Below are positions 23,848 through 43,084 of a DNA stretch of 64,000 bases, one piece after another. The position numbers were made by a program, and so were the translations under genes. The stretch covers positions 1 through 64,000 of the forward strand of contig CAVUUR010000011.1 of NCBI GenBank assembly GCA_963744715.1. Reading direction: 5' to 3'. The DNA is from an uncultured bacterium (lineage in GTDB: Bacteria > Babelota > Babeliae > Babelales > JACPOV01). Position 1 is the stretch's first letter; every line of letters begins with the position of its first letter. The notes under the pieces were generated by a model. That model saw only the letters and a program-made list of their open reading frames with translations. It ran no database searches and was not told the origin of the DNA.

Positions 23848-24095
23848 TTCTGATCCAAGAATATTATGTTAATGGTGTTATCTAATAGTCTATAATTGCT
23901 AATGTAATAAAGAGTTTTTGACAGCGAACTTAATCCTCTCGGCATAAGAATGCATTTTTGATGTTAAACTATGTTGAGATTCTCGCGTGATACGTTGATT
24001 GCATAGTTGTTTTTTGACTTGTGAAAGACAATCAACTAGTATTGATGCTAGCGTGTAGTAGTAAGATTTAATTGGCTATGGTAGAAAGACTTTTT

Positions 24096-24632
24096 ATGAA
24101 AAAAACGGAGACATTTGTAGAAGCATTAGCAACTATTCTGCATAAACAAAATGTAATTAGTACTGATGAAGCGCAGGCAATTAAAAAAGTTTTTTATGAA
24201 CGATCACAAGAAGCGTTTGATGATTTTTTATTGAGTGAGGGATTATTAACCCGTCCAGTTTTATTGAATGCATTAAGCGAATATTATCATGTTCCAGCAT
24301 TCGATGTTGAAGGTTATTTTTTTGACCACCATTTATTACGTGAATTTCCAAAAGATTTTTTGTTGCGCAATGAAATAATTCCGTTAGAACGTGATGAAAA
24401 TACATTAATTATGATTGCCAGCCATCCCAATGATGACGATTTGTTGCCAGAAATAGGTAAAATTGTTTCCTATGACATTGAATATATGGTTGGTATTTCG
24501 CAAGATATTACCGATGCGGTTGAAGAATTTTATGATAAATCACCGAGTGAAGTATCCGAAGATGATGATTTGGATCGTGAGCATGAAGAAGCTGAACAAG
24601 CAGAAGAGTTAATTGAAGAAAAAGAAGATTGA
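24096..24632 (+). CDS. Stand-alone GspE/PilB N-terminal domain protein
   Basis: Degenerate MshEN-like helices, ALSEYYHVP, IIPL, ASHPND; acidic tail; directly upstream of the ATPase. Confidence 0.75.
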   Translation: MKKTETFVEALATILHKQNVISTDEAQAIKKVFYERSQEAFDDFLLSEGLLTRPVLLNALSEYYHVPAFDVEGYFFDHHLLREFPKDFLLRNEIIPLERDENTLIMIASHPNDDDLLPEIGKIVSYDIEYMVGISQDITDAVEEFYDKSPSEVSEDDDLDREHEEAEQAEELIEEKED

Positions 24633-24639
24633 GTTTGGT

Positions 24640-25809
24640 ATGGCAGAACTTGAACACGAATTATCGGTCATAGAACTCGTTGACACTATTATTGCTAAAG
24701 CTATAACCTGTAACGCTTCCGATATACATTTAGAGCCAACACCGTATGAATTGCGATTGCGCTATCGCATCGATGGAGTTTTATATGAACAAAAACCGAT
24801 TATTGTAGCTCTTTTGCCGCAAGTTATATCCCGTATAAAAATTATTGCACAATGTGATATTGCAGAAAAAAGAGTTCCGCAAGATGGCAAACTTGTTGTT
24901 ACCATGGGCAGCAAAAATATTGATTTGCGTGTTTCTACCTTTCCTACCATCTATGGACAAAAAATTGTTATTCGTATTTTGGATCGTTCTCACACCATGA
25001 TGTCCCTTGATCATCTGGGATTATCAGCAACCTTATACAATACCTGTAAACAATTGTTGCGCAAACAACAAGGATTTTTTTTGGTTACCGGGCCAACGGG
25101 ATCCGGAAAAACAACAACCTTATACGCAGCGCTTTGTTTAATTAATACTCCTGAAAAAAATATTATCACGCTGGAAGATCCGGTAGAATATAATGTAACC
25201 GGTATTACGCAAGGGCAAATTCATGCCGATGCTGGATTTACGTTTGCTCGCGGTGTGCGTGCGATGTTACGGCAAGATCCTGATGTGATTATGATTGGTG
25301 AAATTCGTGATAAAGAAACGGCAGGCATTGCCATTGAATCGGCATTGACCGGACATTTAGTATTAAGCACCTTGCATACTAATAACGCCCCGGGAGCGAT
25401 CATGCGGCTTATGGATATGGGTATTGAACCATTTTTATTAAATGCTGCCATTACTGGCGTTATTGCGCAGCGCCTCGTGCGTAAAATTTGCCAGCATTGC
25501 CGTATTGAAGATCTGCCAACCGCATTGGAACAAGAATTTTTAGAACAAATTGATTTGCCGCTCGCCCGTATTATACGCAATAAAGGATGCGAGCATTGTT
25601 TTAATCTTGGGTATAAAGGTAGAATTGGTATTTTTGAACTGATTGTTATGAGTAGTGAGTTGCGAGCACTTATTGTGCAACAACCGATCTTTGATGATAT
25701 TTATGCACAAGCACTTGATGATGGCATGCATACGTTGCTTGATGATGCTAAAGAAAAAGTTATCAGCGGTATTATTTCGCTGGAAGAACTCATGCGTGTT
25801 TTGGTATAA
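24640..25809 (+). CDS. GspE/PilB family secretion/pilus ATPase
   Basis: ASDIHLEP, PQDG, GPTGSGKTTTLY, LEDPVE, RQDPDVIMIGEIRD, TGHLVLSTLH, CxxC...CxxC. Confidence 0.95.
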   Translation: MAELEHELSVIELVDTIIAKAITCNASDIHLEPTPYELRLRYRIDGVLYEQKPIIVALLPQVISRIKIIAQCDIAEKRVPQDGKLVVTMGSKNIDLRVSTFPTIYGQKIVIRILDRSHTMMSLDHLGLSATLYNTCKQLLRKQQGFFLVTGPTGSGKTTTLYAALCLINTPEKNIITLEDPVEYNVTGITQGQIHADAGFTFARGVRAMLRQDPDVIMIGEIRDKETAGIAIESALTGHLVLSTLHTNNAPGAIMRLMDMGIEPFLLNAAITGVIAQRLVRKICQHCRIEDLPTALEQEFLEQIDLPLARIIRNKGCEHCFNLGYKGRIGIFELIVMSSELRALIVQQPIFDDIYAQALDDGMHTLLDDAKEKVISGIISLEELMRVLV

Positions 25810-25888: not shown

Positions 25889-26968
25889 CTACTGTTTCGT
25901 TGTTGCTTGAGTAACAATATTTTGAGCAGATGGTGAACTAGCAAATGCCACACTGAGTTTAGTTAAAAAATCAGCTACTGGTTGTTTAATCCATGCGCCA
26001 AATCCTGTTCCAATACAAGCCCCTGAAAAGAAAATGATGCCGATTCCTGTGAAAGTTTTTGGAAGAAACCATCTATTTTTTGTGACTCCGAGGTCATTTT
26101 CAGTAGTACTACCACCACCAGTAGCTCTTTCGGTTTGAATTTTATCTTTCATATATTTAATCATTTCTGGTTTATATTCTTCATAGATAGATTGTCTTAT
26201 AACCTGAATTCCAGTAATTTTTTTAATTTGTTCTTTTGTAAGTCTATCTTTTTCTTCTTTTGATTCAGCAGATGTTATCAAAAAGTCTATAAATCCAGGT
26301 GTATAATAAGCATATCCATTATGTTGTTTTAATATCGGATCTATAAGGTCATTAAGATCTAATTTATTATTACCGCATTGTTGACGACCTGTTTTGAGGC
26401 TAATGGCCCATGAGCACATTAAGTTTTTTATCGTATCTCGATTATTGGTATCATATTGATGGGTTCCAAGTGATATATCTGCTACGCTGGCTAATTCGGT
26501 GCTATTTATTATACCAGTCATTTCGGTTGATACACTTTTAAATTGTGCCGGTGAACTTGAGTAAATAGAGGTAGCCATGATGTTGCTCATGCCCATTTCT
26601 ATCGTATTTAAGGCGCTGGGGTTCTTTTGAAAAATTTCTTGGGAACTTCTATGTTGTAGCGTTGTCCCTGAGCCGCTTAACTTTGTTTTTTGATTTGGTG
26701 CTGGCTGTTCCTTGCCCATGAAATCTGTGTAGCCAGAGTGATTTATTAGTGGCTGTTGAAATTGATTACTCCCACTTGGTGTTATTGAATTAAAATTTTG
26801 CTTAGCTGGGACGCTTAACGTTGTTTGTTCTTCCGTAAAATCTGTGTAACCAGAGCTTAGCGGTATTAGTTGTTTTTGCTGCTGATCAACGGTTGCTAGT
26901 TGTTGTTCCATCGCCTTTATTTCTATAGCCGTAATAACAATAAAAGTTATCAATATCTTTCTATTCAC
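25889..26968 (-). CDS. Exported hypothetical protein with a repeated SGYTDF motif and C-terminal TM segment
   Basis: GTG start with AAGGTG RBS; signal peptide ends IKA-MEQ; Gly-rich hydrophobic C-terminal helix. Confidence 0.75.
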   Translation of the reverse strand: MNRKILITFIVITAIEIKAMEQQLATVDQQQKQLIPLSSGYTDFTEEQTTLSVPAKQNFNSITPSGSNQFQQPLINHSGYTDFMGKEQPAPNQKTKLSGSGTTLQHRSSQEIFQKNPSALNTIEMGMSNIMATSIYSSSPAQFKSVSTEMTGIINSTELASVADISLGTHQYDTNNRDTIKNLMCSWAISLKTGRQQCGNNKLDLNDLIDPILKQHNGYAYYTPGFIDFLITSAESKEEKDRLTKEQIKKITGIQVIRQSIYEEYKPEMIKYMKDKIQTERATGGGSTTENDLGVTKNRWFLPKTFTGIGIIFFSGACIGTGFGAWIKQPVADFLTKLSVAFASSPSAQNIVTQATTKQ

Positions 26969-27017
26969 AGTTACACCTTTCAATGTGTACTTATTTTTTA
27001 AATTCTCTGTTTTGTTG

Positions 27018-27200
27018 CCACTGTTTCATTTTAGTTTTTCTTGTTCTTTTGTCAAACTTATGCGATTATCATAATAGCATTGTCATTGATATAGCAATAA
27101 AAAACATCGTTATTTTGCTAGAAATTATGTAATAATACCTAATGGGAAAATATTTAAAAGTTTTTTTGAGGATGTATGATTATGAATATGATACTAGTGA
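27018..27200 (+). repeat. Duplicated upstream/5' region, copy 1 (copy 2 at ~28560-28746; partial copy at ~29940-30035)
   Basis: Shared TTTAGTTTTTCTTGTTCTTTTGTCAAA...TGTCATTGAT...TTATTTTGCTA...AGGATGTATGAT(T/C)ATGAATATG. Confidence 0.85.
27028..27055 (-). promoter_or_regulatory. Sigma70-like promoter
   Basis: TTGACA-N16-TAAAAT upstream of the gene starting at 26968. Confidence 0.5.
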
Positions 27201-28336
27201 TAGTGGCAACTATAATGTGCATGAGTGATGTGTATAGTATGGAACAAGGATATCTACCTACAGAAAAACATATAACAAAGCGAGATTATGCTGAAGCCCA
27301 AACTACTGATAGGCAAAAAAAACATAAGAATGTGAAAAAGAATACTAATTCGCTCCATTATAAAGTGGCCTGTGATCATGCAGATTGTGATGAAGTTATG
27401 TATGCAAGGAAAGCGTCCAGTAATAGCCTAAAAGCGTTAGAAGGTTTATATGGATTATTTCGTGTGCATAACCGTGAAGATCATGATTTAGCCATTGAAG
27501 ATAATAAAAAAGAGTATGTATATCAAAGCCACTGGACAGTTTCTGAGGAGCAAATTAAAGAAAAGTATGCGTATATGCAATGTGAAGGTTGCTCCGAAAT
27601 ATTTTGTTGTCTTGATTCGTGTAATGTGGACAATAAAAAAGAAAATAATTTAATAATGAGATTTAAAACACATCTTAATACATGTAAAAACAAGAATACT
27701 AATCAGCAAGAGAAATTACGCAATCAAAGCAAGGGTGAGGCATTCAAGGACATAATACCGATAAACAATATAAAAAACGAAGTGCCTACATTTGAATCAA
27801 CGTGTTCTGCTGACAATTGTGATTTTTCTTTTGATTCAATTGAGTCTGAACATGTAGAAAACATAATGAAAAAACATATACGGTTCGCGCATGGCAATAT
27901 TATAGAAAAGCCAGTAATTACAGAGGCTAGAAAAAAAATAGCCGAATTAGTAGATAAGATGTGTCTAGTAATGTGCATAGAGCCACGATGCAATTTTATA
28001 ATGAATTCAGAAAAAAATGATACAAACAACCTGCGCAGGTTGTTTTATCAACATATAAAGGCAGAGCACTTTTTTGTCGGATTAGATGGTATTGATACGT
28101 ATATTAGAACAAGAATAGTAAGAAAACCTTATGAACAATATGAGAAGGATATAAAAAATATACAGAGTTCTGCGTTACAGTGCGAAAAATGTCGTCTGGC
28201 GATTACAAAACCAAGTAATGTGCACAAAGAACTATTTGACAAAAAACACATATTTTTACATAAGAAAAAAAATCAACTTGTTGGCGATGATCTAGCCATT
28301 ATTGCTGCAGAAGTCTTGGGTTGCCAATTTGAATGA
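27176..28336 (+). CDS. Exported multi-zinc-finger protein, paralog 1
   Basis: Signal peptide, basic patch RQKKHKNVKK, five Cx2-4C...Hx3-4(H/C) motifs. Confidence 0.75.
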   Translation: MIMNMILVIVATIMCMSDVYSMEQGYLPTEKHITKRDYAEAQTTDRQKKHKNVKKNTNSLHYKVACDHADCDEVMYARKASSNSLKALEGLYGLFRVHNREDHDLAIEDNKKEYVYQSHWTVSEEQIKEKYAYMQCEGCSEIFCCLDSCNVDNKKENNLIMRFKTHLNTCKNKNTNQQEKLRNQSKGEAFKDIIPINNIKNEVPTFESTCSADNCDFSFDSIESEHVENIMKKHIRFAHGNIIEKPVITEARKKIAELVDKMCLVMCIEPRCNFIMNSEKNDTNNLRRLFYQHIKAEHFFVGLDGIDTYIRTRIVRKPYEQYEKDIKNIQSSALQCEKCRLAITKPSNVHKELFDKKHIFLHKKKNQLVGDDLAIIAAEVLGCQFE

Positions 28337-28721
28337 GCCTAAGCTGGGCAAACATAGTTTGTGCGTACCGCCACAGAAATTGTTTTAGCGCTTGTCTTAA
28401 AATTAATCAATTTTTGCATAACAACGTGGAATGCAATCTAATTTCCGTAATCATTTAGGACGTTTTCAAGAAAAATGATTAGATCAATCGAAAGAATTAA
28501 TGAATATAGGTAACCCATTACTAACGTTTGAATCGGGGTGCACCATTTGTGATTCTTGTCGTACTGTTTCCATTTAGTTTTTCTTGTTCTTTTGTCAAAT
28601 GTTACACTGGGCCTGCGGTAAAATTGTCATTGATCTATTGCTAAAAAAATGTTGTTATTTTGCTAAAAATTATATAATAATGCGTAATGCGAAAAAATAT
28701 TTAGAATTTTTTTAAGGATGT

Positions 28722-29882
28722 ATGATCATGAATATGCTGATAGTGCTGGTGGCAAGTATATTGTGCATGAGCGATATGTATGGTATGGAGCAAGGATATT
28801 TACCCACAGAAAAACGTACAATGAAGCGAGATCAAACTACTGATAAGTCAAAAAAACATAAAAAAGAAGAAGTAGCTGTGGCGATTAGTTATAGTGAGCC
28901 GTGCTATCATAAAGTTCTCTGTGATCAGAAAAATTGTGATCACGTTGTATTTTCACACAAAAAATCAAATAATAAGGAAAAAGGATTAAAAGGTTTATCT
29001 AAATTATTTAATAAGCATATTAAGAGTATTCACCACTTGCCCACGGCAGATGATAAAGAAAAGTATATAAACCAAACCCACTGGACGGTTTCTGGGCAGG
29101 AAATTAAAGAAAAGTATATGTATCTGCAATGTCAAGGTTGCTTCTCAGTATTCTGTTGTATCGATTCTTATAATATGAGTAATAAAAAACAAGGTGAGTT
29201 AATGAATAGATTTAAAACACATCTTAGTAATTGCGAAAATAAGGATACAGATCAGCAGAATAAATTATCAAAGAGAGGCAGATATGATGGATTGGGAGAT
29301 GTAATAACGCTAAACAATATAGAAAATGCGGTAAATGCATTTCAATCAAAGTGTACTGCTGCTGATTGTGGTTTTTCCTTTGATTCAATTGAGCGTGAGC
29401 ATGTAGAAAATATGATGGAAAAACATATACAGTTCGATCATAAAGGCGGTATTGAAATGCCTATTATCAAGGATGTGAAAAAAAAATTAATAGAATTATC
29501 AGATAAGGTACTTCTATTAATGTGTATGGTGCCGAAATGCAATAATATAACGATAGCAGGGAAAAATAATACGAAACAACTTCAGAATTTATTTGAAAGA
29601 CATATTAAAGACGATCACGTTGCCATATCGGCTGATATTACAAGTTATATTAGAACAAATACCGTAAAAAAAACTTATGGACAATATGAAATAGATCTTG
29701 CAGAAAAACTGAATTCCCCATTACAATGCCAAATATGTCAAGTGGGGCTTAAAGGGGAAACCAATAAAGTGCATAAAGAAATATTTGAAAAGAAGCATGC
29801 ATTTCTACATACTAGCGGGGATAAGACTCCTCTTGATGATCTTGTTACAGCCATCACACTTGCCGGATTGAGTGGGCTCTAA
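28722..29882 (+). CDS. Exported multi-zinc-finger protein, paralog 2
   Basis: Same length and Cys/His pattern as paralog 1; KSKKHKK patch. Confidence 0.75.
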   Translation: MIMNMLIVLVASILCMSDMYGMEQGYLPTEKRTMKRDQTTDKSKKHKKEEVAVAISYSEPCYHKVLCDQKNCDHVVFSHKKSNNKEKGLKGLSKLFNKHIKSIHHLPTADDKEKYINQTHWTVSGQEIKEKYMYLQCQGCFSVFCCIDSYNMSNKKQGELMNRFKTHLSNCENKDTDQQNKLSKRGRYDGLGDVITLNNIENAVNAFQSKCTAADCGFSFDSIEREHVENMMEKHIQFDHKGGIEMPIIKDVKKKLIELSDKVLLLMCMVPKCNNITIAGKNNTKQLQNLFERHIKDDHVAISADITSYIRTNTVKKTYGQYEIDLAEKLNSPLQCQICQVGLKGETNKVHKEIFEKKHAFLHTSGDKTPLDDLVTAITLAGLSGL

Positions 29883-29999
29883 TTTATATAGTACTTTTGC
29901 TCTTTGGTAAATGGTACTCCTTACTTGTGATAGTTAGTGTTTATTATTTTGAAAATTATTATACAATGTTCCACGTATAATAATTTTTTTTAAGGATGA

Positions 30000-31064
30000 A
30001 TGACTATGAACAGGATGATAGTGATAGTGGCAAGCATATGGTGCATGAACAATGTGTATGGTATGGAACAAGAAGAATATGTTCTTACAAAAAAGCGTAA
30101 AATAGATAGAGTACCTGCAACAATTAATAATGATCAGAAACCATATTATTATAAAGTTCTCTGCCCTCAGGAAGATTGTAATGAAGTTGTATCCGTAAAA
30201 AAAACGCAGAAAGAATTAAACGTGTTAAGAATGTCATTAGATAAGCACTTTGTATTGAGTCATGCGTTAAATAATGAGCAAATAAAGCAAAAAGGAGATT
30301 ATGTAGGTGATAATCACTGGGTTGTAACGAGAGAACAGATTAAAAAAAGCTATATACATGCGGAGTGTAAACACTGTGATAAATTATTTTGTTCTGATAA
30401 TAATTTCAATAACAATCGCGATATAAAAGATTTTTTTACCAGGCATTTAAAGACGTGTACTAAAAAAAAACGAGCGGTTGATCAAGAAGTAACATTAATT
30501 AATAAAAATAAGCAGGTAAAGACATATGGATTAGCTTGTACAGCTGCTCATTGTATTTTTTCCTGTCGATCAGTCGATCTTGAATATATAAAAAGGATAA
30601 TGATAAAACATAGTCAGATTAAACATAAAGAGAGCGATTTTAAAATGGGAGATATTAAAGAGGAACTTGAAAATATAGACACCTTATACGGTAAAACTTT
30701 TCTTATAATGTGTCTCGAACCATTATGTAGTACAATAATATATGATAAAAGCCATAAAAAATCGTTACGAGAATCTTTTGTGAGGCATTTAAAATTTAAG
30801 CATAAGATTAAATCTGTAAAAGTGATTAATAACGAGATTTTGAACTATTGTAATAATGTTATGATTGAAAAACCTCTCAGCTATAATGCAGATGAAAAAA
30901 AAATAAAGTCTTTAACGTGTATTGCTTGTAAGGAATCTACTAAAGCAGATTGCGAAGCATTTTTAAGTAAACATAATTATTTACATCATAGAAAAGATGA
31001 GATTTGTGTTATTGATAATTTTTTAATACGAACTGCAGTTGCTTCCATGCGTGAAATTATTTAA
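30000..31064 (+). CDS. Exported multi-zinc-finger protein, paralog 3
   Basis: Conserved Cys/His pattern; KKRKI and KKKR patches. Confidence 0.75.
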   Translation: MTMNRMIVIVASIWCMNNVYGMEQEEYVLTKKRKIDRVPATINNDQKPYYYKVLCPQEDCNEVVSVKKTQKELNVLRMSLDKHFVLSHALNNEQIKQKGDYVGDNHWVVTREQIKKSYIHAECKHCDKLFCSDNNFNNNRDIKDFFTRHLKTCTKKKRAVDQEVTLINKNKQVKTYGLACTAAHCIFSCRSVDLEYIKRIMIKHSQIKHKESDFKMGDIKEELENIDTLYGKTFLIMCLEPLCSTIIYDKSHKKSLRESFVRHLKFKHKIKSVKVINNEILNYCNNVMIEKPLSYNADEKKIKSLTCIACKESTKADCEAFLSKHNYLHHRKDEICVIDNFLIRTAVASMREII

Positions 31065-31141: not shown

Positions 31142-31902
31142 ATGAGTCAGTTATCCATCAGTGATCTTGTTGTTTGTATAGAAGAAAAAAAATACTAAAA
31201 GGTATTAATCTTACCGTACAACCTGGGCAGGTTCATGCCGTAATGGGGCCAAACGGTTCGGGAAAAAGCACCCTGGCACATACCCTCATTGGATATCCTA
31301 AGTATCAGGTAAAACAGGGAACAATCTTCTTTAATGGAACAAATATAACGGAACTCCCCTTGGATCAACGTGCACGGTTGGGATTATTACTCTCATTTCA
31401 GCATCCTCAAGAAATTCCAGGTATTGGTGTTTTTGCCTTTTTAAAAGAAGCGTATAGGGCATTAACCGGGAATGATAGTAACGTTAGTGAATTTCAAAAG
31501 CACGTATTTGCTATGATGGATATATTGGCGATGGATCATGCATTGTTGTATCGGAAATTGCATGATGGTTTTTCAGGTGGAGAGAAAAAAAGATTTGAAA
31601 TGCTGCAAATGTTGTTATTTAATCCTAACATGGTGATTTTTGATGAAATTGATTCGGGCCTGGATATTGATGCCTTAAAAACCGTTGCTCATGCAATTGT
31701 TTATGCTCGTCAAAAAAATCCAGCCATGAGCGTACTGTTAATAACTCATTATCAGCGGATTTTAAACTATATTGAACCGGATACTGTTCATGTATTGATT
31801 GATGGCATCATTGCCAAATCGGGGGATAAACGGTTACTTGAATCGTTAGAGCGGGATGGTTATGAACAGTTTGGTCAACAAGTTTCCGGTTGTTTTGTAT
31901 GA
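31142..31902 (+). CDS. sufC: Fe-S cluster assembly ATPase SufC (frameshift in the A8 run at ~31185-31192)
   Basis: [39 protein letters not shown] 31142 needs one extra A to be in frame. Confidence 0.93.
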
Positions 31903-33274
31903 TCAGTAAAAACAATGACGATGTTCCCTACTATTTCAAAAGCGATAAAGGTCTTAACCGTGCAACGGTTATTCAGATTTCTGAGCAAAAAAATGAGCCG
32001 GGCTGGATGACTGAATTTCGTTTGAATGCCTTAGAAATTTTTGAGAAAAAACCAATGCCTTCATGGGGTGCTGATTTATCAGGGCTCGACCCTCATGATA
32101 TTCATTATTACGTCAAGCCCTATTGAACATTCGCAAAAATCATGGGATGCGGTGCCACTGAGACTATTAAACAAACCTTTGAGCAATTAGGAATTCCACA
32201 AGCTGAGCAAAGTATGCTTGCTGGCGTTGGCGCGCAATATGAATCGGAAATGATTTATAAACAGCTTAAACAAGAATGGTCTGATAAAGGTGTTATTTTT
32301 TCCGATATGAGTGATGCATTAGTTACTAATCCCGAACTGGTGAAAAAATATTTTTCTACCATTATTCCTGCGCATGATAATAAATTTGCAGCACTTAATT
32401 CTGCGGTGTGGAGTGGGGGAAGTTTTGTATATGTTCCTCATGGCGTGCATATTGATATGCCGTTGCAAGCATATTTTAGAATTAATATGATGAGCATGGG
32501 GCAGTTTGAGCGAACATTAATTATTGCAGAGCCGGGAAGCTTTGTGCATTACGTGGAAGGATGCAGTGCTCCGGTGTATCGTAATAATTCATTGCATAGC
32601 GCCGTTGTGGAAATTAGTTGCTCATGAAAGATCTCATGTCAGGTATACTACGATTCAGAATTGGTCAAATAATGTTTATAATTTAGTTACCAAACGTGCG
32701 GTTGCATACAGAAACGCCAAAGTTGAATGGGTTGATGGTAATTTTGGTAGTAAAGTTACGATGAAATATCCGTGCTATCATTTTAAAAGAACCGGGTGCA
32801 AAGGGCGAAATTATTTCTATAGCTGTTGCCGGCAATGGCCAACATCAAGATGCGGGAGGAAAAATTATTCATCTAGCCCCTAATACTACTTCGACTATTA
32901 TTTCAAAATCGATCAGTAAAGATGGTGGAAGAACAAGTTATCGTGGATTATTAAAATTAATAAAAGGAGCACACGGTTCATCATTCTCGTGTGCAGTGCG
33001 AAGCATTAATTCTTGATGAACATTCTCGTTCTGATACCTATCCAACGGTTGACGTAAATAGAGCATGATGTTGATGTTGGCCACGAAGCATCGGTGAGTA
33101 CTATTAATGATGAGCAACTTTATTATTTAATGAGTCGGGGCTTTTCCGCAGCACAGGCGCAAGCAATGATTGTTAATGGGTTTATTGATTCTTTTGTGCA
33201 AGTAACTTCCGATGGAATATGCGGTTGAAATTAATCGGCTTATTGCTCATGAAATGGAAGGCTCTATCGGATGA
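31899..33274 (+). CDS. sufB: Fe-S cluster assembly protein SufB, interrupted by about seven frameshifts
   Basis: [69 protein letters not shown] recovered across frames. Confidence 0.93.
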
Positions 33275-34539: not shown

Positions 34540-37500
34540 ATGAAATATCAAAAAAATTCTTTATTCTCAGGTCTTTTTCTAGCGTTGATAGCTATGCAAT
34601 GCGCAGTAAAACCAATGGAGATAACAGAGATTCCAGCCGAAGCCTGGTATGGATTTGCAAAATTCTATGAACAAAATAATAACACTGAACGTGCTGTTGA
34701 ATGTTTAGAAATATCTGCAGAACTTGATTATCCTAAAGGTTTATTCGCTTTGGGAAAATATTATTTAGGAGATACTTCTACCTATTCTCAAGGTTTAGGA
34801 AATATTCGGAAGGCGATAACACAAGATGCATCATTATCTGGACGTGCGGTTGATATTTCTACAAGAAGGACTATTGATACACAACGTGATTTGGCAAAAA
34901 TTTTATTAGAATGTTCTGATGAAAAAGTAAAAAAAGATGGCGTACAGATAACTGAAAACATACTGAAGAAAGTTTTAGAAAACAATAAGCTCCATAAAAA
35001 TACGATGCGCCAAAGTGTGCTTAGTAAAGTTTATAATTCCCCCTGCTATGCACAAGCAAAAGAAATACTGGGTCATACTGATAGTTTTAAAGAGTATGCT
35101 GGATTATTGGAATATCGAGCTTTTTGTTCAAATATAACTCATGACGCACATACAGCAATTAACTATTTATCCCCTATTGGCAATTCTAGGGCATATAGTT
35201 GTTTAGCGGATTTATTTTTGCGTGACCATGATCATAAAATGGCTTATGAGTATTGCAAAAAAATATTAGAAGATCCTAAAAAGAATGAATATGAACAAAT
35301 AGCACGGCACCATTTAAAAACGCTCGAAGAGCGTGGGTGGGTAGAGGCTCGTATTTATTTGCTTGGTCAATATGCGCAAATTAAGGATAAAACCAAAGAT
35401 GATCATGCAGCTATAAAAATATTGCTGAAAAAACTAACAGTGGCGGATGGCCAACTATTACGAGAAAATGACAAGGCTTATCGGGTATTGAAAAAATACG
35501 CTTATGAAAGCACTGCTCCAGTATTGCAAAAATATTTTGCTCAGTATGTAATGAACGGTATAGATGATCGATGGGAGCAGCAAGAGGCCATTAGTCAGTT
35601 AGAAAAGTTAGCTCAACGTAGGGATAATGAAGCAAGCTTTTTATTAATTAAAAAATATCTCAACGATAGTAAAATGTTGGCGAGTGCCACAAGGTTAATA
35701 CTAAATAATGAAATACCAGAACATTCACAAAAAGAATTTGAAACCCTTTTCAGGGGAAAGTTTCAAGATTTTCTTGCCTTAGCGAAAGAAGGCGATCCCT
35801 GCGTCTCATGGTTATGTGGTTACGGATATTGTCATGAATTTGGGCAATTAAAAAGTGCCGAATCTACTACTAAGGCACTCGATTATTTTGCTCGATCATG
35901 TTTGCAGCAAGATTGTCCACTAGAAATATTTGAAAGTTGTTTAGGTTACCTACAGCGTATGGCTATTGGGATAGAAAAATCATGTGATGAACATAGCATA
36001 AGAGCATGGGGATATCTTTGTGGCATATATATTCATACCGATGCTCCATCCTATTTGATAGAGGAATCTTGTAATAAAATCAATGAACTTATACTTAGTA
36101 ACCAAAAAGACAAAGCAATTGCTCTACATTTTTTAATGATATTGAAAGAAATAAAAGTATTTGACGCATTAAAAAAAAATATTAGTGGAAAATCACCAAA
36201 CTCAGCTGTGCTCTTAGCACGTTGTTATGCATTGAGTGCCGCGATCAAAAAAAGTGTTATTGATGGTGATAACAATACGGTACTTGAACAATTATTACAT
36301 AGTGAAGAATATTTAGCAGAAGCACAGCACCTTGGCGCTGACGTAGCTGATATTATGCGTCGAACAAAAAGTTTAATTGGCATAGAGTATCAAAAATTGA
36401 AGCGGTATGATAAGGCAATAGAATATTTTAAACAAGGGTCTGAGGAAGTTTTTCTTAATTTAGCCAAAATATATATAGAGCATAAAAATAATCTCAAAGA
36501 TGGCGCTAGTTGGTTAAAAAAAGCTATGGAAAATGAAAAACCTGAAGCAGCAGTATTATACGCAAATTTTATGGCCACTCCCAAATTGGCAGAGCACGGG
36601 GTTACTAAAGAACTATTAACCAAGTATGCAGATATTATCAGTAATTTTGTTACTAAAGAAGAAATTTCGATACTCGATAAGTGCGGCTTTGAGTGTCCGG
36701 TTGAGGCATTAGCGCAAATAAAAGAAGATGACAAGGTTGATGTAACTAATCCCTCAATTATCTATTTACAGGGTGTCGATGCATTCTATCATGATAACTA
36801 TAGTGATGCACTGGCATATTTTAAACAAGTGGAAGAGAGTATTTTTTTGGCTAAGGGATACAAAGCCTTGATTTTGCGCAAGAGTGATGCAACGGTAAAC
36901 GAATCGTTAGAGGTTGCAACAGAATTTTTACAGGGATGTAGCAATCATTCTATAGTTTCCGCCCAATTTTTTTTACAAAAATCAGTATGGATTATGATTA
37001 ACAGAATGGCTCATGATGGAAATATTTCTGCACAGTGTGTATTCATTAAAGAATCTGTTAATCAGTATCTAAGCCCAGCCATTAAAGATGATAAGCATAA
37101 GCATGGAAAATTGATCGATGATTGGCTAATTAGTTTTAAAGAAAAATTGGATTCATTATCATTACAAGAATTTGGTAGCACACAAGAAACGCTCAGAAAG
37201 CAGAAGGTTTACTTATCTCTGAAAAAATTTTTTCAATCGAGTAGATCTTGTTCTTGGGTTAATTTGTTAATGGAAATTATTAAGAAGAATCTTAATATTT
37301 TCGATATGCCAGACTCTTGTTATATAGAAGATATCATAAGCTATTACACCGGGGTTAAAGATAAAAAAGAAGAACATAACAGAATAGGTGAATTTCTTAG
37401 TGGATTATATACAAAAAAAGCTAGAGACGCTGCAAATTTGAAGAATATGGCTAATTCACGTACGTTATATGAAAAAGCATTAGAGTATGACAAAAATAAT

Positions 37501-38763
37501 CAAGAAGCGCATATTGCATTGGGTATGTTGTTGTTCGGTACTGAGTCAGATCAAGATTCTACTAAAAAGGCATTAAATCACTTTCATGAAGCCGCAGATG
37601 TAGGTAATAACGCTATTGCTCAGGGTTATTTGGGGCATATATATTGCGGACTCTATGACCTGAATATTAAAAAAGATGTTGATAAAGGCCTTTCTTATAT
37701 GGAAAAAGTGGCGAAGGCGGGACAAGGTGTGGTGTACGTTACGATAGCTTCTCTGTATTTGGTAGAAAAAAATAATAGGAAAAAAGCAGAAGAGTATCTT
37801 AAACTTGCGGAAGAGAATGATTGCGCATTAGAAGCAAAGTTTTACAGAGGACATATCGCATACACGGAAAAAAAATATAAAGATGCAAAGGAGCATTTTT
37901 CTGATCTACTTTCGACGGATGATTCAAGAGTCATGTGTTATTTATTATTAATAGAATTGGAGCAATCATCCAAGGTGAGCGATAACGTTACCCAGCTTCT
38001 TAAAAATATTGTTGATAAAATGCGAACCGATGAAGTCGCCATTAAAAGTGTTCTATCATTAGAGGTTGTACAAAAATTAACAAAATTTATTTCCAGTGAT
38101 CCTAAGAATCAATTTAATATATATTATAAGCAAATGGGTGAGATTATCATCGAGGATTGGCGTATGCATAAGACGGCTTATTTAGATAAGCTTGAGGAGA
38201 TGCTAAAAAAATTCAAAGTTACTGACGAAAGCTGTATAGCTGAGATTGAGCAATTTATCATCGATAAAAAGATAGCAGAGGATGCTAAAGGTGGTGATGG
38301 TCGTGCTGCATACTGTATGGCATATTTTGCATTGAAAAAAAGAAATCTCAATACTCAGCAAGCAGAAACGGATGAAGATATTGAACAATGGTTGAATACT
38401 GCTAAAAGTGATAAAGGTTATAGAGCGCGAGCCAGTATGCTTTTATTATCTCGGTATTTAGTGAAGGTTGAAGAGGAAGTTAATATCATCGATAAAATTA
38501 AATTATTAACGCATGGAGCATGCCTCATAATTGATACTGTAGCTCAAAAAGATCTTACGGTTTCACAACGGATATACGAAGATCTTAAACATAAGATTGC
38601 AACGGTAAAAGAGAGTATGGTAACAATACAAAACAATTTAGAAGACGCTGAAAAGATAAAAATGATTGGTTCATTTATAGAAAAATTAAATGAATGTGAA
38701 GAAAAAATAGATGGTTTTTTGAGCCAAGTAGCACAACAATCTTTATCAGATAATAATAAATGA
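34540..38763 (+). CDS. Large exported SEL1/TPR-repeat protein (1407 aa)
   Basis: Signal peptide; SEL1-like repeats such as AQGYLGHIYCG...KDVDKGLSYMEKVAKAG. Confidence 0.8.
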   Translation: MKYQKNSLFSGLFLALIAMQCAVKPMEITEIPAEAWYGFAKFYEQNNNTERAVECLEISAELDYPKGLFALGKYYLGDTSTYSQGLGNIRKAITQDASLSGRAVDISTRRTIDTQRDLAKILLECSDEKVKKDGVQITENILKKVLENNKLHKNTMRQSVLSKVYNSPCYAQAKEILGHTDSFKEYAGLLEYRAFCSNITHDAHTAINYLSPIGNSRAYSCLADLFLRDHDHKMAYEYCKKILEDPKKNEYEQIARHHLKTLEERGWVEARIYLLGQYAQIKDKTKDDHAAIKILLKKLTVADGQLLRENDKAYRVLKKYAYESTAPVLQKYFAQYVMNGIDDRWEQQEAISQLEKLAQRRDNEASFLLIKKYLNDSKMLASATRLILNNEIPEHSQKEFETLFRGKFQDFLALAKEGDPCVSWLCGYGYCHEFGQLKSAESTTKALDYFARSCLQQDCPLEIFESCLGYLQRMAIGIEKSCDEHSIRAWGYLCGIYIHTDAPSYLIEESCNKINELILSNQKDKAIALHFLMILKEIKVFDALKKNISGKSPNSAVLLARCYALSAAIKKSVIDGDNNTVLEQLLHSEEYLAEAQHLGADVADIMRRTKSLIGIEYQKLKRYDKAIEYFKQGSEEVFLNLAKIYIEHKNNLKDGASWLKKAMENEKPEAAVLYANFMATPKLAEHGVTKELLTKYADIISNFVTKEEISILDKCGFECPVEALAQIKEDDKVDVTNPSIIYLQGVDAFYHDNYSDALAYFKQVEESIFLAKGYKALILRKSDATVNESLEVATEFLQGCSNHSIVSAQFFLQKSVWIMINRMAHDGNISAQCVFIKESVNQYLSPAIKDDKHKHGKLIDDWLISFKEKLDSLSLQEFGSTQETLRKQKVYLSLKKFFQSSRSCSWVNLLMEIIKKNLNIFDMPDSCYIEDIISYYTGVKDKKEEHNRIGEFLSGLYTKKARDAANLKNMANSRTLYEKALEYDKNNQEAHIALGMLLFGTESDQDSTKKALNHFHEAADVGNNAIAQGYLGHIYCGLYDLNIKKDVDKGLSYMEKVAKAGQGVVYVTIASLYLVEKNNRKKAEEYLKLAEENDCALEAKFYRGHIAYTEKKYKDAKEHFSDLLSTDDSRVMCYLLLIELEQSSKVSDNVTQLLKNIVDKMRTDEVAIKSVLSLEVVQKLTKFISSDPKNQFNIYYKQMGEIIIEDWRMHKTAYLDKLEEMLKKFKVTDESCIAEIEQFIIDKKIAEDAKGGDGRAAYCMAYFALKKRNLNTQQAETDEDIEQWLNTAKSDKGYRARASMLLLSRYLVKVEEEVNIIDKIKLLTHGACLIIDTVAQKDLTVSQRIYEDLKHKIATVKESMVTIQNNLEDAEKIKMIGSFIEKLNECEEKIDGFLSQVAQQSLSDNNK

Positions 38764-38797
38764 TGTAAGAGAACCTTCCTGAAAAAATTGGGTGATA

Positions 38798-41700
38798 ATG
38801 AATAAAAATTTTATGATTGGCCTGATACTCCATGGGATAATACCCAATGGGTTATGTATGGATAATCAGCTTGCTAATACCAGTGAACAAAAATATACAG
38901 TTGTTTCATCTATTGATTTTTATGAAAACAGAATATATCCAAATAACTGCGATTTCTTATCATTCGAATCAGCCAAAAATAAGATTCTATCTGATGACGT
39001 TACAAAAAAGGAAAATGCAAGCGGCGAAATGATAAAATTAATCAATAAGAGCTATCCACCAGCATTGGTTTATGCAGGAATGTCTGCATTGACAGCCAAA
39101 AAAGATTTGGATGCAGAATATTATTTTAAAATGCTGTCTGATTTAGGACATCCGGTGGGACAAGAACAACTAGGTATGCTCTATAAAAATGCAGTTAATC
39201 CTGAAATGAAGGCTTGTTGGCTTCCGTACGTTGCCCAAGCTGCATTGCCACGGTTTTTAGGTCAACAATATAATAATGGAGAAATGAATAATACTGTTTA
39301 CCATCATACTTCTGCAATAAGAACGCTTGCTGATCATTATGCTAACGTCGATACAACACGTTATGATTTGCGATATCATTATACAGAGATTGCGGCATTA
39401 CAAGAAAAAAAAGGGGGCAAGTGGCTTGAGGCGTTAATGAATATGCACATAAGTAATAATAATTTTTCAAATGCATATACGTTTTTAAAGAACGTTATAA
39501 GTAATAACGCTGAATCGGCGGATCGTAAAAAAATTGCATATACACATTTAAAAGAGCTGGCAATTGTGCATGAATATGGAGATGCGCAATTTTTTTTAAT
39601 TACCAAAATGCTTAATACAAAAAATAATGAATCTGATATTACATTGTCCCCTGAGGATTTAATAACGATAGGTAGTTGTATAGTACAAAGTGCGGACAAA
39701 GAAATTATAGCAAATTTTTTTAAGCCCGGTTTATTAGGAGCGTTGGCGCATTTTGATAAGAACATAAGGAATTCTTCAGCCGAACAGAAACAGGACCTCT
39801 TAACCGTGCGCGGATTATTAGCCCATAAAAGCTTTGAGTATCGATTAGTTAAAGATGATCAATTGGCTACGGTTATTGATTTTTTAAAGCAAGCAGATCA
39901 AAAAAAGCCACAAGTGTTGTTAGGGTTATCCGACATTTATAGATACACTATGCAAATAAAAGAAGCATGTACTACTCTAATAGGTTTTGTGGAAAAAAAT
40001 GATATCACCAATGCAGAACGGCAATGGTATGATAAAATAATAGTAAATTTATTTGATGCAATTGTAACAGAAAAGAAATCCACGGAAGCCGCCTGTTTTC
40101 TAAAAACTATCGCACATAATAAAGATAATTTTTTTACGCAAGAGGATATTAGAATATTAGTAACTATTATTGGTGCTAAAGATTATAAAAAATTGCATGC
40201 GTATTTTAATGAGCAGCAAGATCCAGAGTTGTGGTTTATCGTAGGTAGAACATTATATGAATTTGAAAAAAATAAGCTTTTAGCACAAAAAGGAAATAAA
40301 CAACTACCAAAAAAACCAACAAAAAATATAAAGGTTACCGGTATTGAGTACTTACAAAAATCGTGTGCAGAAAATAACCCCAAAGCACTGCTCTATTGTC
40401 TTATTAATGATATAGCAGAAAAAAATAATGGTACATCAAAGGATGCTGCACATAGTAGGATGGTACTTTTTAATAAAGCATTACACATCATAGAACAGGA
40501 AAATACTTACAGATCGCAAGAGTTGTTTTTGCTAGAGCAAGCAGCAGAATCTTTAGAAAAAGATGCTTTTGATAATGCCGATATTGCTTACAAACTTTCC
40601 GTATTTTATGGCAAAGAGCACGGCGATCTGGCAATTAATGAAGCAAAAAGTAAAAAATATTTTACCCGAGCACGGAAATTAGGAAATGGGCATGCGTTAT
40701 GGCAAGAGTATAAATCAAAAAATGAAAAATGGATTCCGGGTGAAGAAGTTGCTCTATTGTGGGATATAATCAAAAAAATTAATGGTACTGATACGGGTGA
40801 TTTAGAAATACGAAGTACCATAACAGAGCGTTTGAGCTATTTAGCTACTGTTGTTCCTAGTGCCTGCTATGTTCTTGCGCATGAATTGCTAAAAGATTCT
40901 GGTAAAAAAATTAGTGAGGGTAACGCTGAGGCTGTTGTTAACTATATTAATCAGGCGGAAGCTCATATTAGTGCTATGCAATGTCCTTCATTGGCAACAC
41001 TTAATAGCATTAAAAAGACCGGTATTATTGATCAGGCAGTAAAACTAAATAATGGCACCATATTATTTACATTGGGCAAACTATATTCTTCTCGATTTTT
41101 AAAAGATCAAGCATCATTGGATGATACATTCCGTGCAGAAACTTGGTTATCTGAGAATATAGGTATTTTTGGAAATGAATCTGATAGAAAATTGTTAATG
41201 AATATACAACAAACACTTGGAGCCATATTATTTAATAAAAAACGCCAAGGTGAAGCGGAAAAAATGTGGTTGAAGGCAATCGAAAATAATATTGCGAGTG
41301 ATAATATTTATACGCCTATTTTGCTGGCATACAGCTATTTAAAAAATGGAGAAAACGATATCGAAAAAATACAAAGAGGTATTGATCTATTAGTTTCAAA
41401 GCTAGACAACATTGATGATGCTTCTATTTACTTGGGAAATTTTTTGATTGACAGGCCAGATCTTGTTGAAAAAGTTAAGTTTCCAACAGAACGTATTATT
41501 GAGCGGCTTAGTTACTTAGCAAGTTGTTATAATCAAGAAGCAGGAGAATTGCTAAAAAAACTCGAAAAAGAATATACATTGCTCCCCATTGAAGAATTTA
41601 AACGTGAAATAGGATATTCCGAAGATACTGCCGATGCCAAGATTATCCATAAATTAGCAGTGGCACATTTTTTTAATGAGAATTCTGAAGCTGCATTTAC

Positions 41701-43084
41701 ATTATTTAAACAAGCTCAAACGTTAGGAAATTTTTTGGCTGAGGGCTATCTTGGAATTATGTATTTGTATAGCAAGGACATACCGGTAGTGGAAAAAGAA
41801 TCGCGACGGCAATATGCGTTAACATCATTTATATCGTTCTTTGATTATCCTATTCTCGAGGAAAGTAGCATAGAAGTCACGGCTTTATTGAATTATTCAT
41901 TACATGGATTAAAAGAAATATGTGGCGATACTTCCGATAATAATAACATTGTGATCAATTATATTGCTCAATATAACTTAATAAATAATTTAATTAAATT
42001 ATATCAATATACCCTATTAAAAGAGTATTTAGACGAGGCAGTTCCTTGGTTTGTTAATTTACAAAAATGTATTGATGACAAAGATTTGATGAGTATGATT
42101 AAAGCAGATGAAAGGGGAAAAAAAGCAATTGAAATGTTGAATATTTGTTTTGAAAATGACCCTTCTAGCGCGGGATGTTTGTATATGGAGCTAGTTAGAA
42201 ATAAACTCGCTAAAAAAGAAGCGCCAATAAAAGAAGATATTGAGCGTTATATAACTATTGCAGATGACTATTTAAAAAAAGCTTTGCATGCAAACAATGA
42301 TCCCGAAGTTGGACAGCATTTAACGTTGCTTGCGTTAGTAAAAGCCGAGGCGTTATCGAAATATGATAATCCTAATTATAAAGAAGCAGATAGATTATTT
42401 GAGGAAGTTTTAAACAGTATGCCTTCGTGTGGAGCGGCCGCTATCGAACGTGCTAAACTATATTTTGATAATAAAATAGGTATGAAAAAAGAAGTTGCTG
42501 TAAAAAAAGGCTTGGAGATTTTGCTTAAAGGTTATGAAGCTGGATGCCGTGAAATATTAATGGCTTTAGGAAATATATACAGGCATGGAACTTGTTTTGG
42601 CTGCTCAATCTCCGTAGCAAAGGATAATAAAAAAGCTCGTGAGTATTATGAAAAGGCATTGTCGGAAAGTAGGTTATCTCCACAAAGTAAGCGATTGGAA
42701 AAAGAAGCTGCTAAAGCACTGATACCTATGTATATTGAAGCAGGAACCATCGATGAGGTTTTCAAGGGAATTAAGGACAAAGAAAAAAGGCTACTAAATT
42801 TGGGAAGGATATGCTTTGATGTGCAGAATTATTCGGAAGCGTTAAAATATTTTCTTAGTAACGATATGCCATTAAAATATCGCAATAAAGCATTAGTTTA
42901 TATAGCAAAAATTTACTCAATAAACAATAATATTACATTGGCAGAAAAGACTCTTGCTAAGATTGAATTTAAAGATGATGATATTGTAATGAATAAAAAA
43001 ATTATAAACCAAATTATATCCTTTAATCTCTGGGAATTATTGAATAAAGTCCAAGAGGAGAAAAAAGCAATCAACAATGCATAG
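38798..43084 (+). CDS. Large exported SEL1/TPR-repeat protein (~1430 aa)
   Basis: Signal-like N-terminus; SEL1-like repeats such as ALGNIYRHG...KDNKKAREYYEKA and AEGYLGIMY. Confidence 0.8.
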   Translation: MNKNFMIGLILHGIIPNGLCMDNQLANTSEQKYTVVSSIDFYENRIYPNNCDFLSFESAKNKILSDDVTKKENASGEMIKLINKSYPPALVYAGMSALTAKKDLDAEYYFKMLSDLGHPVGQEQLGMLYKNAVNPEMKACWLPYVAQAALPRFLGQQYNNGEMNNTVYHHTSAIRTLADHYANVDTTRYDLRYHYTEIAALQEKKGGKWLEALMNMHISNNNFSNAYTFLKNVISNNAESADRKKIAYTHLKELAIVHEYGDAQFFLITKMLNTKNNESDITLSPEDLITIGSCIVQSADKEIIANFFKPGLLGALAHFDKNIRNSSAEQKQDLLTVRGLLAHKSFEYRLVKDDQLATVIDFLKQADQKKPQVLLGLSDIYRYTMQIKEACTTLIGFVEKNDITNAERQWYDKIIVNLFDAIVTEKKSTEAACFLKTIAHNKDNFFTQEDIRILVTIIGAKDYKKLHAYFNEQQDPELWFIVGRTLYEFEKNKLLAQKGNKQLPKKPTKNIKVTGIEYLQKSCAENNPKALLYCLINDIAEKNNGTSKDAAHSRMVLFNKALHIIEQENTYRSQELFLLEQAAESLEKDAFDNADIAYKLSVFYGKEHGDLAINEAKSKKYFTRARKLGNGHALWQEYKSKNEKWIPGEEVALLWDIIKKINGTDTGDLEIRSTITERLSYLATVVPSACYVLAHELLKDSGKKISEGNAEAVVNYINQAEAHISAMQCPSLATLNSIKKTGIIDQAVKLNNGTILFTLGKLYSSRFLKDQASLDDTFRAETWLSENIGIFGNESDRKLLMNIQQTLGAILFNKKRQGEAEKMWLKAIENNIASDNIYTPILLAYSYLKNGENDIEKIQRGIDLLVSKLDNIDDASIYLGNFLIDRPDLVEKVKFPTERIIERLSYLASCYNQEAGELLKKLEKEYTLLPIEEFKREIGYSEDTADAKIIHKLAVAHFFNENSEAAFTLFKQAQTLGNFLAEGYLGIMYLYSKDIPVVEKESRRQYALTSFISFFDYPILEESSIEVTALLNYSLHGLKEICGDTSDNNNIVINYIAQYNLINNLIKLYQYTLLKEYLDEAVPWFVNLQKCIDDKDLMSMIKADERGKKAIEMLNICFENDPSSAGCLYMELVRNKLAKKEAPIKEDIERYITIADDYLKKALHANNDPEVGQHLTLLALVKAEALSKYDNPNYKEADRLFEEVLNSMPSCGAAAIERAKLYFDNKIGMKKEVAVKKGLEILLKGYEAGCREILMALGNIYRHGTCFGCSISVAKDNKKAREYYEKALSESRLSPQSKRLEKEAAKALIPMYIEAGTIDEVFKGIKDKEKRLLNLGRICFDVQNYSEALKYFLSNDMPLKYRNKALVYIAKIYSINNNITLAEKTLAKIEFKDDDIVMNKKIINQIISFNLWELLNKVQEEKKAINNA

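Follow-up and report, generated by a model that had tools for sequence, protein, structure and literature searches.

The window analysed here is a stretch of 64,000 nucleotides from an uncultured bacterium of the phylum Babelota (positions 1 to 64,000 of contig CAVUUR010000011.1, assembly GCA_963744715.1). On its + strand it carries three neighbouring genes, hereafter the trio, which encode paralog 1 (27176-28336, 386 aa), paralog 2 (28722-29882, 386 aa) and paralog 3 (30000-31064, 354 aa); paralogs 2 and 3 share 51% and 35% identity with paralog 1. In all three proteins a leader is followed by a basic patch, a double unit of zinc-finger-like modules with long spacers (long fingers), a DUF1059-like module and a second double unit. 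Alignment identifies the trio genes as tandem duplicates, and the 120-150 bases 5′ of the genes were copied along with them: the upstream region at 27020-27175 (+) recurs as a near copy at 28566-28721 and as a shorter copy at 29883-29999. The sequence T-run-AGGATG precedes each start, with AGGA lying 5′ of each ATG. Since the upstream region and the T-run-AGGATG were duplicated with each gene, each paralog is likely to have its own promoter and ribosome-binding site.

Modules and predicted fold of the trio proteins

Each trio protein contains five Cys/His modules, and all 20 ligand positions, nine of them His in each protein, are invariant among the paralogs at 35-51% overall identity. A preliminary description of the window had reported three paralogs with a leader, a basic patch and five conserved modules, and the motifs it quoted are all present. 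None of 20,000 shuffles per protein reached five modules, the maximum being three. In paralog 1, modules 1 and 2 read C-x4-C-x26-H-x4-H and C-x2-C-x26-H-x3-C, and modules 3 to 5 read C-x4-C-x18-H-x4-H, C-x4-C-x20-H-x4-H and C-x2-C-x18-H-x3-H. The ligand sets, which follow the pattern C-x2/4-C...H-x3/5-H, are C2H2 in four of the five modules and C2HC in module 2. A hydrophobic residue stands three places ahead of the first His in modules 1-4, and the linkers between modules span 27-39 residues, predicted helices included.

The N-terminal double unit of paralog 1 (27344-27709, +) consists of a C2H2 finger, a helix, a strand, a helix and a C2HC finger, and alignment places its counterparts in paralogs 2 and 3 at 28893-29258 and 30141-30488 (+). 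The preliminary description had allowed for a disulfide-bonded fold; the AlphaFold2 model of the N-terminal unit shows instead two hairpin-helix fingers with the invariant His (predicted local distance difference test, 82.7; predicted template modelling score, 0.65). The C-terminal double unit (27947-28279, + in paralog 1; 29496-29828 and 30684-31004, + in paralogs 2 and 3) appears to be a diverged repeat of the N-terminal one: hhalign gave a probability of 69% (E 4e-5) for the pair, and 1, 2 and 15 of 300 shuffles with Cys and His held fixed attained its score. Between the units lies the middle module with its helix (27785-27955, + in paralog 1; 29334-29504 and 30519-30692, + in paralogs 2 and 3). 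This part is similar to DUF1059, whose members are small, stand-alone proteins; the match to PF06348 (E 0.0077) remained below the cut-off, with 17.3 bits against a gathering score of 21.1, and membership of that family was rejected. As far as the sequences tell, each trio protein comprises a DUF1059-like module flanked by two copies of a double long-finger unit that has not been described before.

Two alternative functions were considered. The best match of the double-unit profile among Protein Data Bank sequences was the zinc-finger region of TAX1BP1 (E 0.0034), which would suit exported cytosolic effectors whose fingers bind host proteins (ubiquitin or others), for example to blunt ubiquitin-directed autophagy. 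Widely spaced long-helix fingers with a C2HC second finger are also suited to protein binding. However, the alignment appears to be off register, because the His and the final Cys of the query are aligned with residues that we take to be the second His of TAX1BP1 and the first Cys of the finger after it. UBZ fingers use an Asp two places after the His, where module 2 has N, S or K. No trio protein matched the TAX1BP1/NDP52-type UBZ family (PF18112) at E ≤ 1, and membership of it was likewise rejected. We regard a protein-binding role as rather unlikely, though not negligible. The other alternative, that the trio are exported effectors binding RNA rather than DNA (double-stranded RNA, ribosomal RNA or nascent ribosomes) in the cytoplasm or nucleolus, draws on the fact that long-linker fingers often bind RNA (JAZ/matrin type), on the isoelectric points of the mature proteins (8.1-9.1), on a zf-C2H2_jaz cluster at 0.85, which is a lead only, and on structural searches of the trio fold, whose low-Z rows include double-stranded RNA-binding domains and ribosomal eL20/LX. 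The jaz and structural scores all lie within chance, however, and no RNA-binding family passed in the Pfam search; we consider RNA binding unlikely.

Predicted leaders, mature N-termini and basic patches

A Sec leader was predicted in each paralog by a hydropathy heuristic, at 27176-27238 (+) in paralog 1 (21 aa, ending V-Y-S and followed by Met-Glu) and at 28722-28784 and 30000-30062 (+) in paralogs 2 and 3. A hydrophobic 11-mer begins at residue 6 in each protein (mean Kyte-Doolittle values 3.0, 3.1 and 2.6), and a small residue and then Met-Glu come after the hydrophobic stretch in all three, the predicted mature N-termini being at 27239, 28785 and 30063. Apart from the ligands, the leader is the best conserved region of the trio (57-67% identity, with a lower proportion of nonsynonymous (pN) than of synonymous (pS) differences).

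In paralogs 1 and 2 no basic residue precedes the hydrophobic stretch, as might be expected if the leader were an uncleaved anchor and the fingers, tethered to the membrane, remained in the cytoplasm of the bacterium to regulate its own genes. The hydrophobic stretch is nevertheless short (the best 19-mer scores 2.0-2.1, and 1.3 in paralog 3), the leaders of relatives have basic n-regions, and a small-residue site followed by Met-Glu is found in many exported proteins of the source genome. A tethered regulator is, in our view, highly improbable.

Predicted mature N-termini are biased throughout the source genome, in which 126 of 367 leader-like open reading frames (ORFs) have a small residue and then Met after the hydrophobic stretch. 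This Met is followed by E, D, Q or N in 84 of the 126, whereas internal sites continue in this way in 258 of 1357 cases (p 5e-28). The eukaryotic NatB acetylase follows the substrate rule Met-[DENQ], and PEXEL processing in Plasmodium leaves a similar end. The Met-[EDQN] mature end could be a delivery or stability signal.

Basic patches resembling a nuclear localisation signal (NLS) lie downstream of the leaders, at 27311-27340 (+) in paralog 1 (residues 46-55), 28845-28865 (+) in paralog 2 (residues 42-48) and 30090-30104 (+) in paralog 3 (residues 31-35), the last being out of register with the other two. The motif K(K/R)x(K/R) occurs in them at residues 48, 44 and 31, respectively.

Relatives of the long-finger unit

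No full-length homolog of the trio was found in the sequence collections searched. Module profiles were run over all 261 Babelota genomes, the source genome included, and retrieved genome G163, whose best protein was equalled by 0 of 300 shuffles while two others failed the shuffle comparison, and next the single-contig genome G199, in which three proteins (947, 391 and 576 aa) are built from double units in series, preceded by a leader. The G199 proteins (L177:7705-11757 and L191) carry two or three double units together with long acidic or Ser/Thr/Asn-rich regions, and their genes sit between uvrC and clpB. Neither G199 nor G163 gave a PF00096 match. The final double-unit profile, in which the G199 units are included, matches 3 of the 261 genomes (the source genome and two of the 260 others). 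An independent profile made from five G199 units only ranked paralog 3 first of the 1118 ORFs of the source genome (E 4.6e-5), in a match spanning both units; paralogs 1 and 2 were not among its best 20 matches, and, of the five G199 units, two stood clearly above shuffles against the trio profile and three did not. The trio is likely to be kin to the G199 units, at a distance.

A fourth long-finger member of the source genome lies at C12:33923-34516 (0 of 300 shuffles). All 11 long-finger proteins inspected have a leader-like start, and K(K/R)x(K/R) is found outside the fingers in seven of them (four of eight when the trio is left out). In the collections searched, homologous units occur solely in leader-bearing Babelota proteins; free-living homologs without signal peptides, which the preliminary description had named as evidence that would speak against it, were looked for there and none was found. 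The sole outside match of the trio profile was a 55-aa DUF1059 protein (E 4.8e-4). Tandem leader-bearing genes with long-spacer Cys/His modules were also seen at L160 (G207:C1:1536799-1539897), a locus that gave a weak profile match at first and was not retrieved by the final double-unit profile.

Kruppel arrays in Babelota

A second tandem cluster of the source genome, at C12:229102-232626 (L005), encodes leader-bearing proteins with 12-residue fingers, one of which scored 43.5 bits on PF00096 (cut-off 25.2); after two of its genes the finger motifs run on in shifted frames. PF00096 was found in 96 of 251 Babelota genomes at E ≤ 0.01 and over the Pfam cut-off in 56 of 251, the matches being spread over 13 of 21 families. 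In two control phyla, those of a Parachlamydiales genome and of a Nitrospira genome, the corresponding numbers were 8 of 201 genomes and 12 of 151, with one over the cut-off in each. C2H2 proteins, one with TGDKP/TGERP linkers, were noted at L138, L139 and L146 (G321 and G359) of the chlamydial control phylum.

The sample read, which is biased toward strong matches, comprised thirty best-match loci together with five longer regions and contained 52 multi-finger ORFs, 47 of them with a closed 5′ end. A leader-like start was seen in 46 of these 47, against 44 of 86 neighbouring ORFs under the same lenient rule, and Met-[EDQN] came after the leader in 29 of the 46 leader-bearing ORFs. K(K/R)x(K/R) was present outside the fingers in 27 of 46 finger ORFs, where length-matched exported proteins of the source genome would give 11.3 and 200 shuffles gave at most 16; the significance of this excess is overstated, because paralogs of the same genome are not independent.

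The class has the 12-residue spacer; among its 267 canonical fingers the F core is present in 219 and the L core in 253, and the 184 linkers of seven-residue spacing include 61 TGEKP and 19 TGERP. Entropy among the fingers was highest at helix positions -1, +3 and +6. Arrays reach 12 fingers. At L133 (G183:C1:233098-241864) there are seven leader-bearing Kruppel genes of 5-12 fingers and one two-finger gene; the cluster lies between rnhB and tilS/gyrB and has an unrelated gene inserted in it. The seven Kruppel genes, within about 8 kb, hold 55 fingers, 53 of them distinct, in which pN is 0.54 at the base-contact positions -1/2/3/6 and 0.14 elsewhere, the former still below the pS of 0.66, so that positive selection is not indicated. 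The 12-finger protein of G183 matched ZNF568 (E 8.7e-112), then PRDM9 and CTCF. In all five longer regions bacterial housekeeping genes flank the arrays and the G + C content (GC) is similar. On the sequence evidence these Babelota proteins, which agree fully with the Kruppel/TFIIIA type, are classical C2H2 arrays with predicted export leaders in bacteria. The comparisons made gave no support for homology of these arrays with the long fingers of the trio.

Genes around the trio

The trio lies between two landmarks outside it, a gene for a GspE/PilB-like ATPase (24613-25809, +) on the left and sufC (31174-31902, +) on the right. In seven of nine relative loci one to three unrelated ORFs, all lacking finger motifs, occupy the gap between pilB and sufC. 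The trio site is a turnover slot, rapid and lineage-specific, and no operon of common function. A Sec leader by itself ends in the periplasm, and the middle module resembles the prokaryotic DUF1059; on these grounds the trio might be periplasmic or surface proteins (metal-buffering, structural or adhesive) that are not delivered to a host. Such a role leaves the rapid turnover of the slot unexplained, as it does the leader-bearing Kruppel arrays of the phylum with their variable base-contact positions and excess of NLS-like patches, and we judge it distinctly unlikely.

Left of the trio, an ORF consisting only of an MshEN domain (24072-24632) forms a gene separate from that of the ATPase (24072-25809 for the two), a split common to the relative loci read. 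An orphan protein with a leader and Met-Glu is encoded divergently from the trio at 25889-26983 (-); it has a C-terminal hydrophobic segment and found no match in the Pfam search. On the right, sufB (31929-33271) is broken across three reading frames, which, together with the shifted frames in the second finger cluster, suggests assembly indel errors over many pseudogenes. Two tandem leader-bearing TPR/Sel1 proteins of 1400 aa (34540-43084) are inserted into the suf cluster before sufS.

Source organism and known systems

The source genome (1.26 Mb, 86% complete) has matches to nucleotide (ATP/ADP) translocases at three loci and, as parts resembling a type II secretion system (T2SS), two secretins and two GspF/PilC loci. 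The set agrees with published TM6 genomes, for which the accessible text describes T2SS parts and gspD in two copies (PMC4776705). For a signal peptidase neighbouring the trio, all four homologs from named organisms, among 120 listed, belong to Ca. Babeliales. Contig G000:C1 (3329 bases), with a GC of 0.61 where the main contigs have about 0.35, is a probable contaminant and was excluded from counts.

The trio is thus found in a host-associated bacterium, as is expected of nucleomodulins, to judge from its Babeliales affiliation, its nucleotide translocases and, in the available part of PMC12172432, the strictly intracellular life of cultured phylum members in protists. In the excerpted text of PMC6561590, Chromulinavorax multiplies in the cytoplasm of its host and releases vesicles, and 44% of its proteins carry signal sequences. 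Nucleomodulins are secreted bacterial proteins acting in the host nucleus, as is proposed for the trio by analogy; those in the accessible part of one review include SET-domain methyltransferases, and the sole mention of 'zinc finger' there concerns a host protein (PMC10117894). The closest working model, compared by description and not by sequence, appears to be MoHTR3 of Magnaporthe oryzae, according to the text available a secreted C2H2 protein with a signal peptide that enters the host nucleus and changes host expression; unlike the trio it is fungal and small and acts in a plant (PMC10189765). Ros/MucR proteins share with the trio a bacterial Cys2His2 domain with an extra helix, and membership of that family was rejected, as the available description gives it a 9-residue spacer and a single finger (PMC9779718), against spacers of 18-26 and five modules in the trio. 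Kistimonas, of another phylum, is named in a review passage as a host-associated group rich in zinc-finger proteins; their architecture, any export signal and what they do are not stated there (PMC12491435). Zinc-finger proteins of Babelota/Dependentiae were not described in the literature searched, which did not extend to subscription journals and the Chromulinavorax supplements.

The familiar nucleomodulins are, to our knowledge, repeat proteins or enzymes delivered by type III/IV secretion and not zinc-finger arrays. Among them are the transcription activator-like (TAL) effectors, which read DNA by modular repeats. Tandem Kruppel arrays are usually regarded as belonging to eukaryotes (and giant viruses), and the example commonly given for bacterial C2H2 proteins is Ros/MucR, a regulator with a single finger.

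Proposed role of the trio

The reading we weigh is that the trio are exported effectors which enter the protist nucleus, bind nucleic acid or chromatin and alter host expression. Three results limit its support. Firstly, the trio shares with Kruppel/TFIIIA arrays (PF00096; ZNF568, PRDM9, CTCF) serial Cys-Cys...His-His modules, a hydrophobic residue before the first His and a predicted hairpin and helix, but it has spacers of 18-26 residues and not 12, linkers of 27-39 residues with extra helices, and one C2HC module; its modules gave no PF00096 match even at E ≤ 1, and they have neither short linkers of the TGEKP type nor the 12-residue spacer in which F stands at +4 and L at +10. The eukaryotic multi-C2H2 architecture proposed in the preliminary description is therefore not borne out: the trio fails the classical C2H2 tests, the inference to a DNA-binding fold does not hold, and the trio cannot read DNA in the manner of a Kruppel array. 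Secondly, the residues between the ligands had been said to diverge strongly and the paralogs to be diversifying in specificity. Identity between ligands and in linkers was the same (0.46 versus 0.45, 0.27 versus 0.31 and 0.29 versus 0.30 for the three paralog pairs), in a comparison confined to three sequences and to a long-finger fold whose contact positions are undefined. Whole-gene ratios of nonsynonymous to synonymous substitution rates (dN/dS) were 0.64, 0.58 and 0.56, with dS of 0.56-1.0. Because of these ratios and the equal identities, the trio appears to be under relaxed purifying selection, and nothing between the ligands points to specificity that is diversifying. Thirdly, all three basic patches do fit the NLS consensus to which the preliminary description referred, but K(K/R)x(K/R) is common. 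Within residues 23-60 the motif is present in 10 of the 99 proteins of the genome with a leader and M[EDQN] (three of these being the trio) and in 26 of the 700 whose start is not leader-like; at any position, 91 of the 245 ORFs with lengths of 300-450 aa and 305 of all 1118 ORFs have it. Since the motif is so frequent, the patch is suggestive, modest evidence and not diagnostic.

The high dN/dS and the lack of a full-length homolog in the collections searched would also fit decaying duplicates without current function. Yet three frames have stayed intact at this dS with every ligand kept, and the leaders and upstream regions are conserved; we think decay very improbable.

The idea of host-directed effectors gains support from other evidence, namely the Babelota genome with its translocases and T2SS-like parts, relatives that all bear leaders, and the Kruppel arrays of the phylum; the part that fails is the step from multi-C2H2 to DNA binding. 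Under the proposed mechanism, the leader would be cleaved to leave Met-Glu at the N-terminus, and the modules, each modelled as a hairpin and long helix and paired into double units, would very probably bind zinc. The proteins would then probably cross the outer membrane, with vesicles or the T2SS-like secretin machinery as the route, and act in the host. Nuclear import by way of the basic patch is slightly favoured, and the target, nucleic acid or chromatin, is the least certain step. As a whole, we put a nuclear effector role for the trio just short of an even chance. Sequence-specific DNA binding appears well supported for the Kruppel class and merely plausible for the trio, for which DNA reading of this kind is doubtful.

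The view we prefer takes the trio as a second architecture, of non-classical type, among exported zinc-finger proteins that occur across the phylum and are mainly of the Kruppel class; both classes differ from Kruppel/TFIIIA proteins in being bacterial and in starting with an export-like leader. It is an even question whether Babelota hold an arsenal of secreted transcription factors, Kruppel arrays with an export leader, an NLS and base-contact residues free to vary together with the long fingers, that would reprogram protist genes by direct DNA reading, with Met-[EDQN] perhaps a delivery or host-stabilisation signal. The trio adds an unclassified zinc-finger architecture, and the significance is carried chiefly by the Kruppel class, in that a bacterial phylum of protist parasites has leader-bearing Kruppel arrays, with at least a fifth of the sampled genomes over the cut-off. 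If the proposal is true, these proteins would be a new class of DNA-reading bacterial effectors, a zinc-finger counterpart of TAL effectors. Host takeover by Babelota would then become testable, as target sites of the Kruppel arrays can be predicted from the recognition code and cultured isolates exist; the L133 cluster of G183 would make a good first test system.

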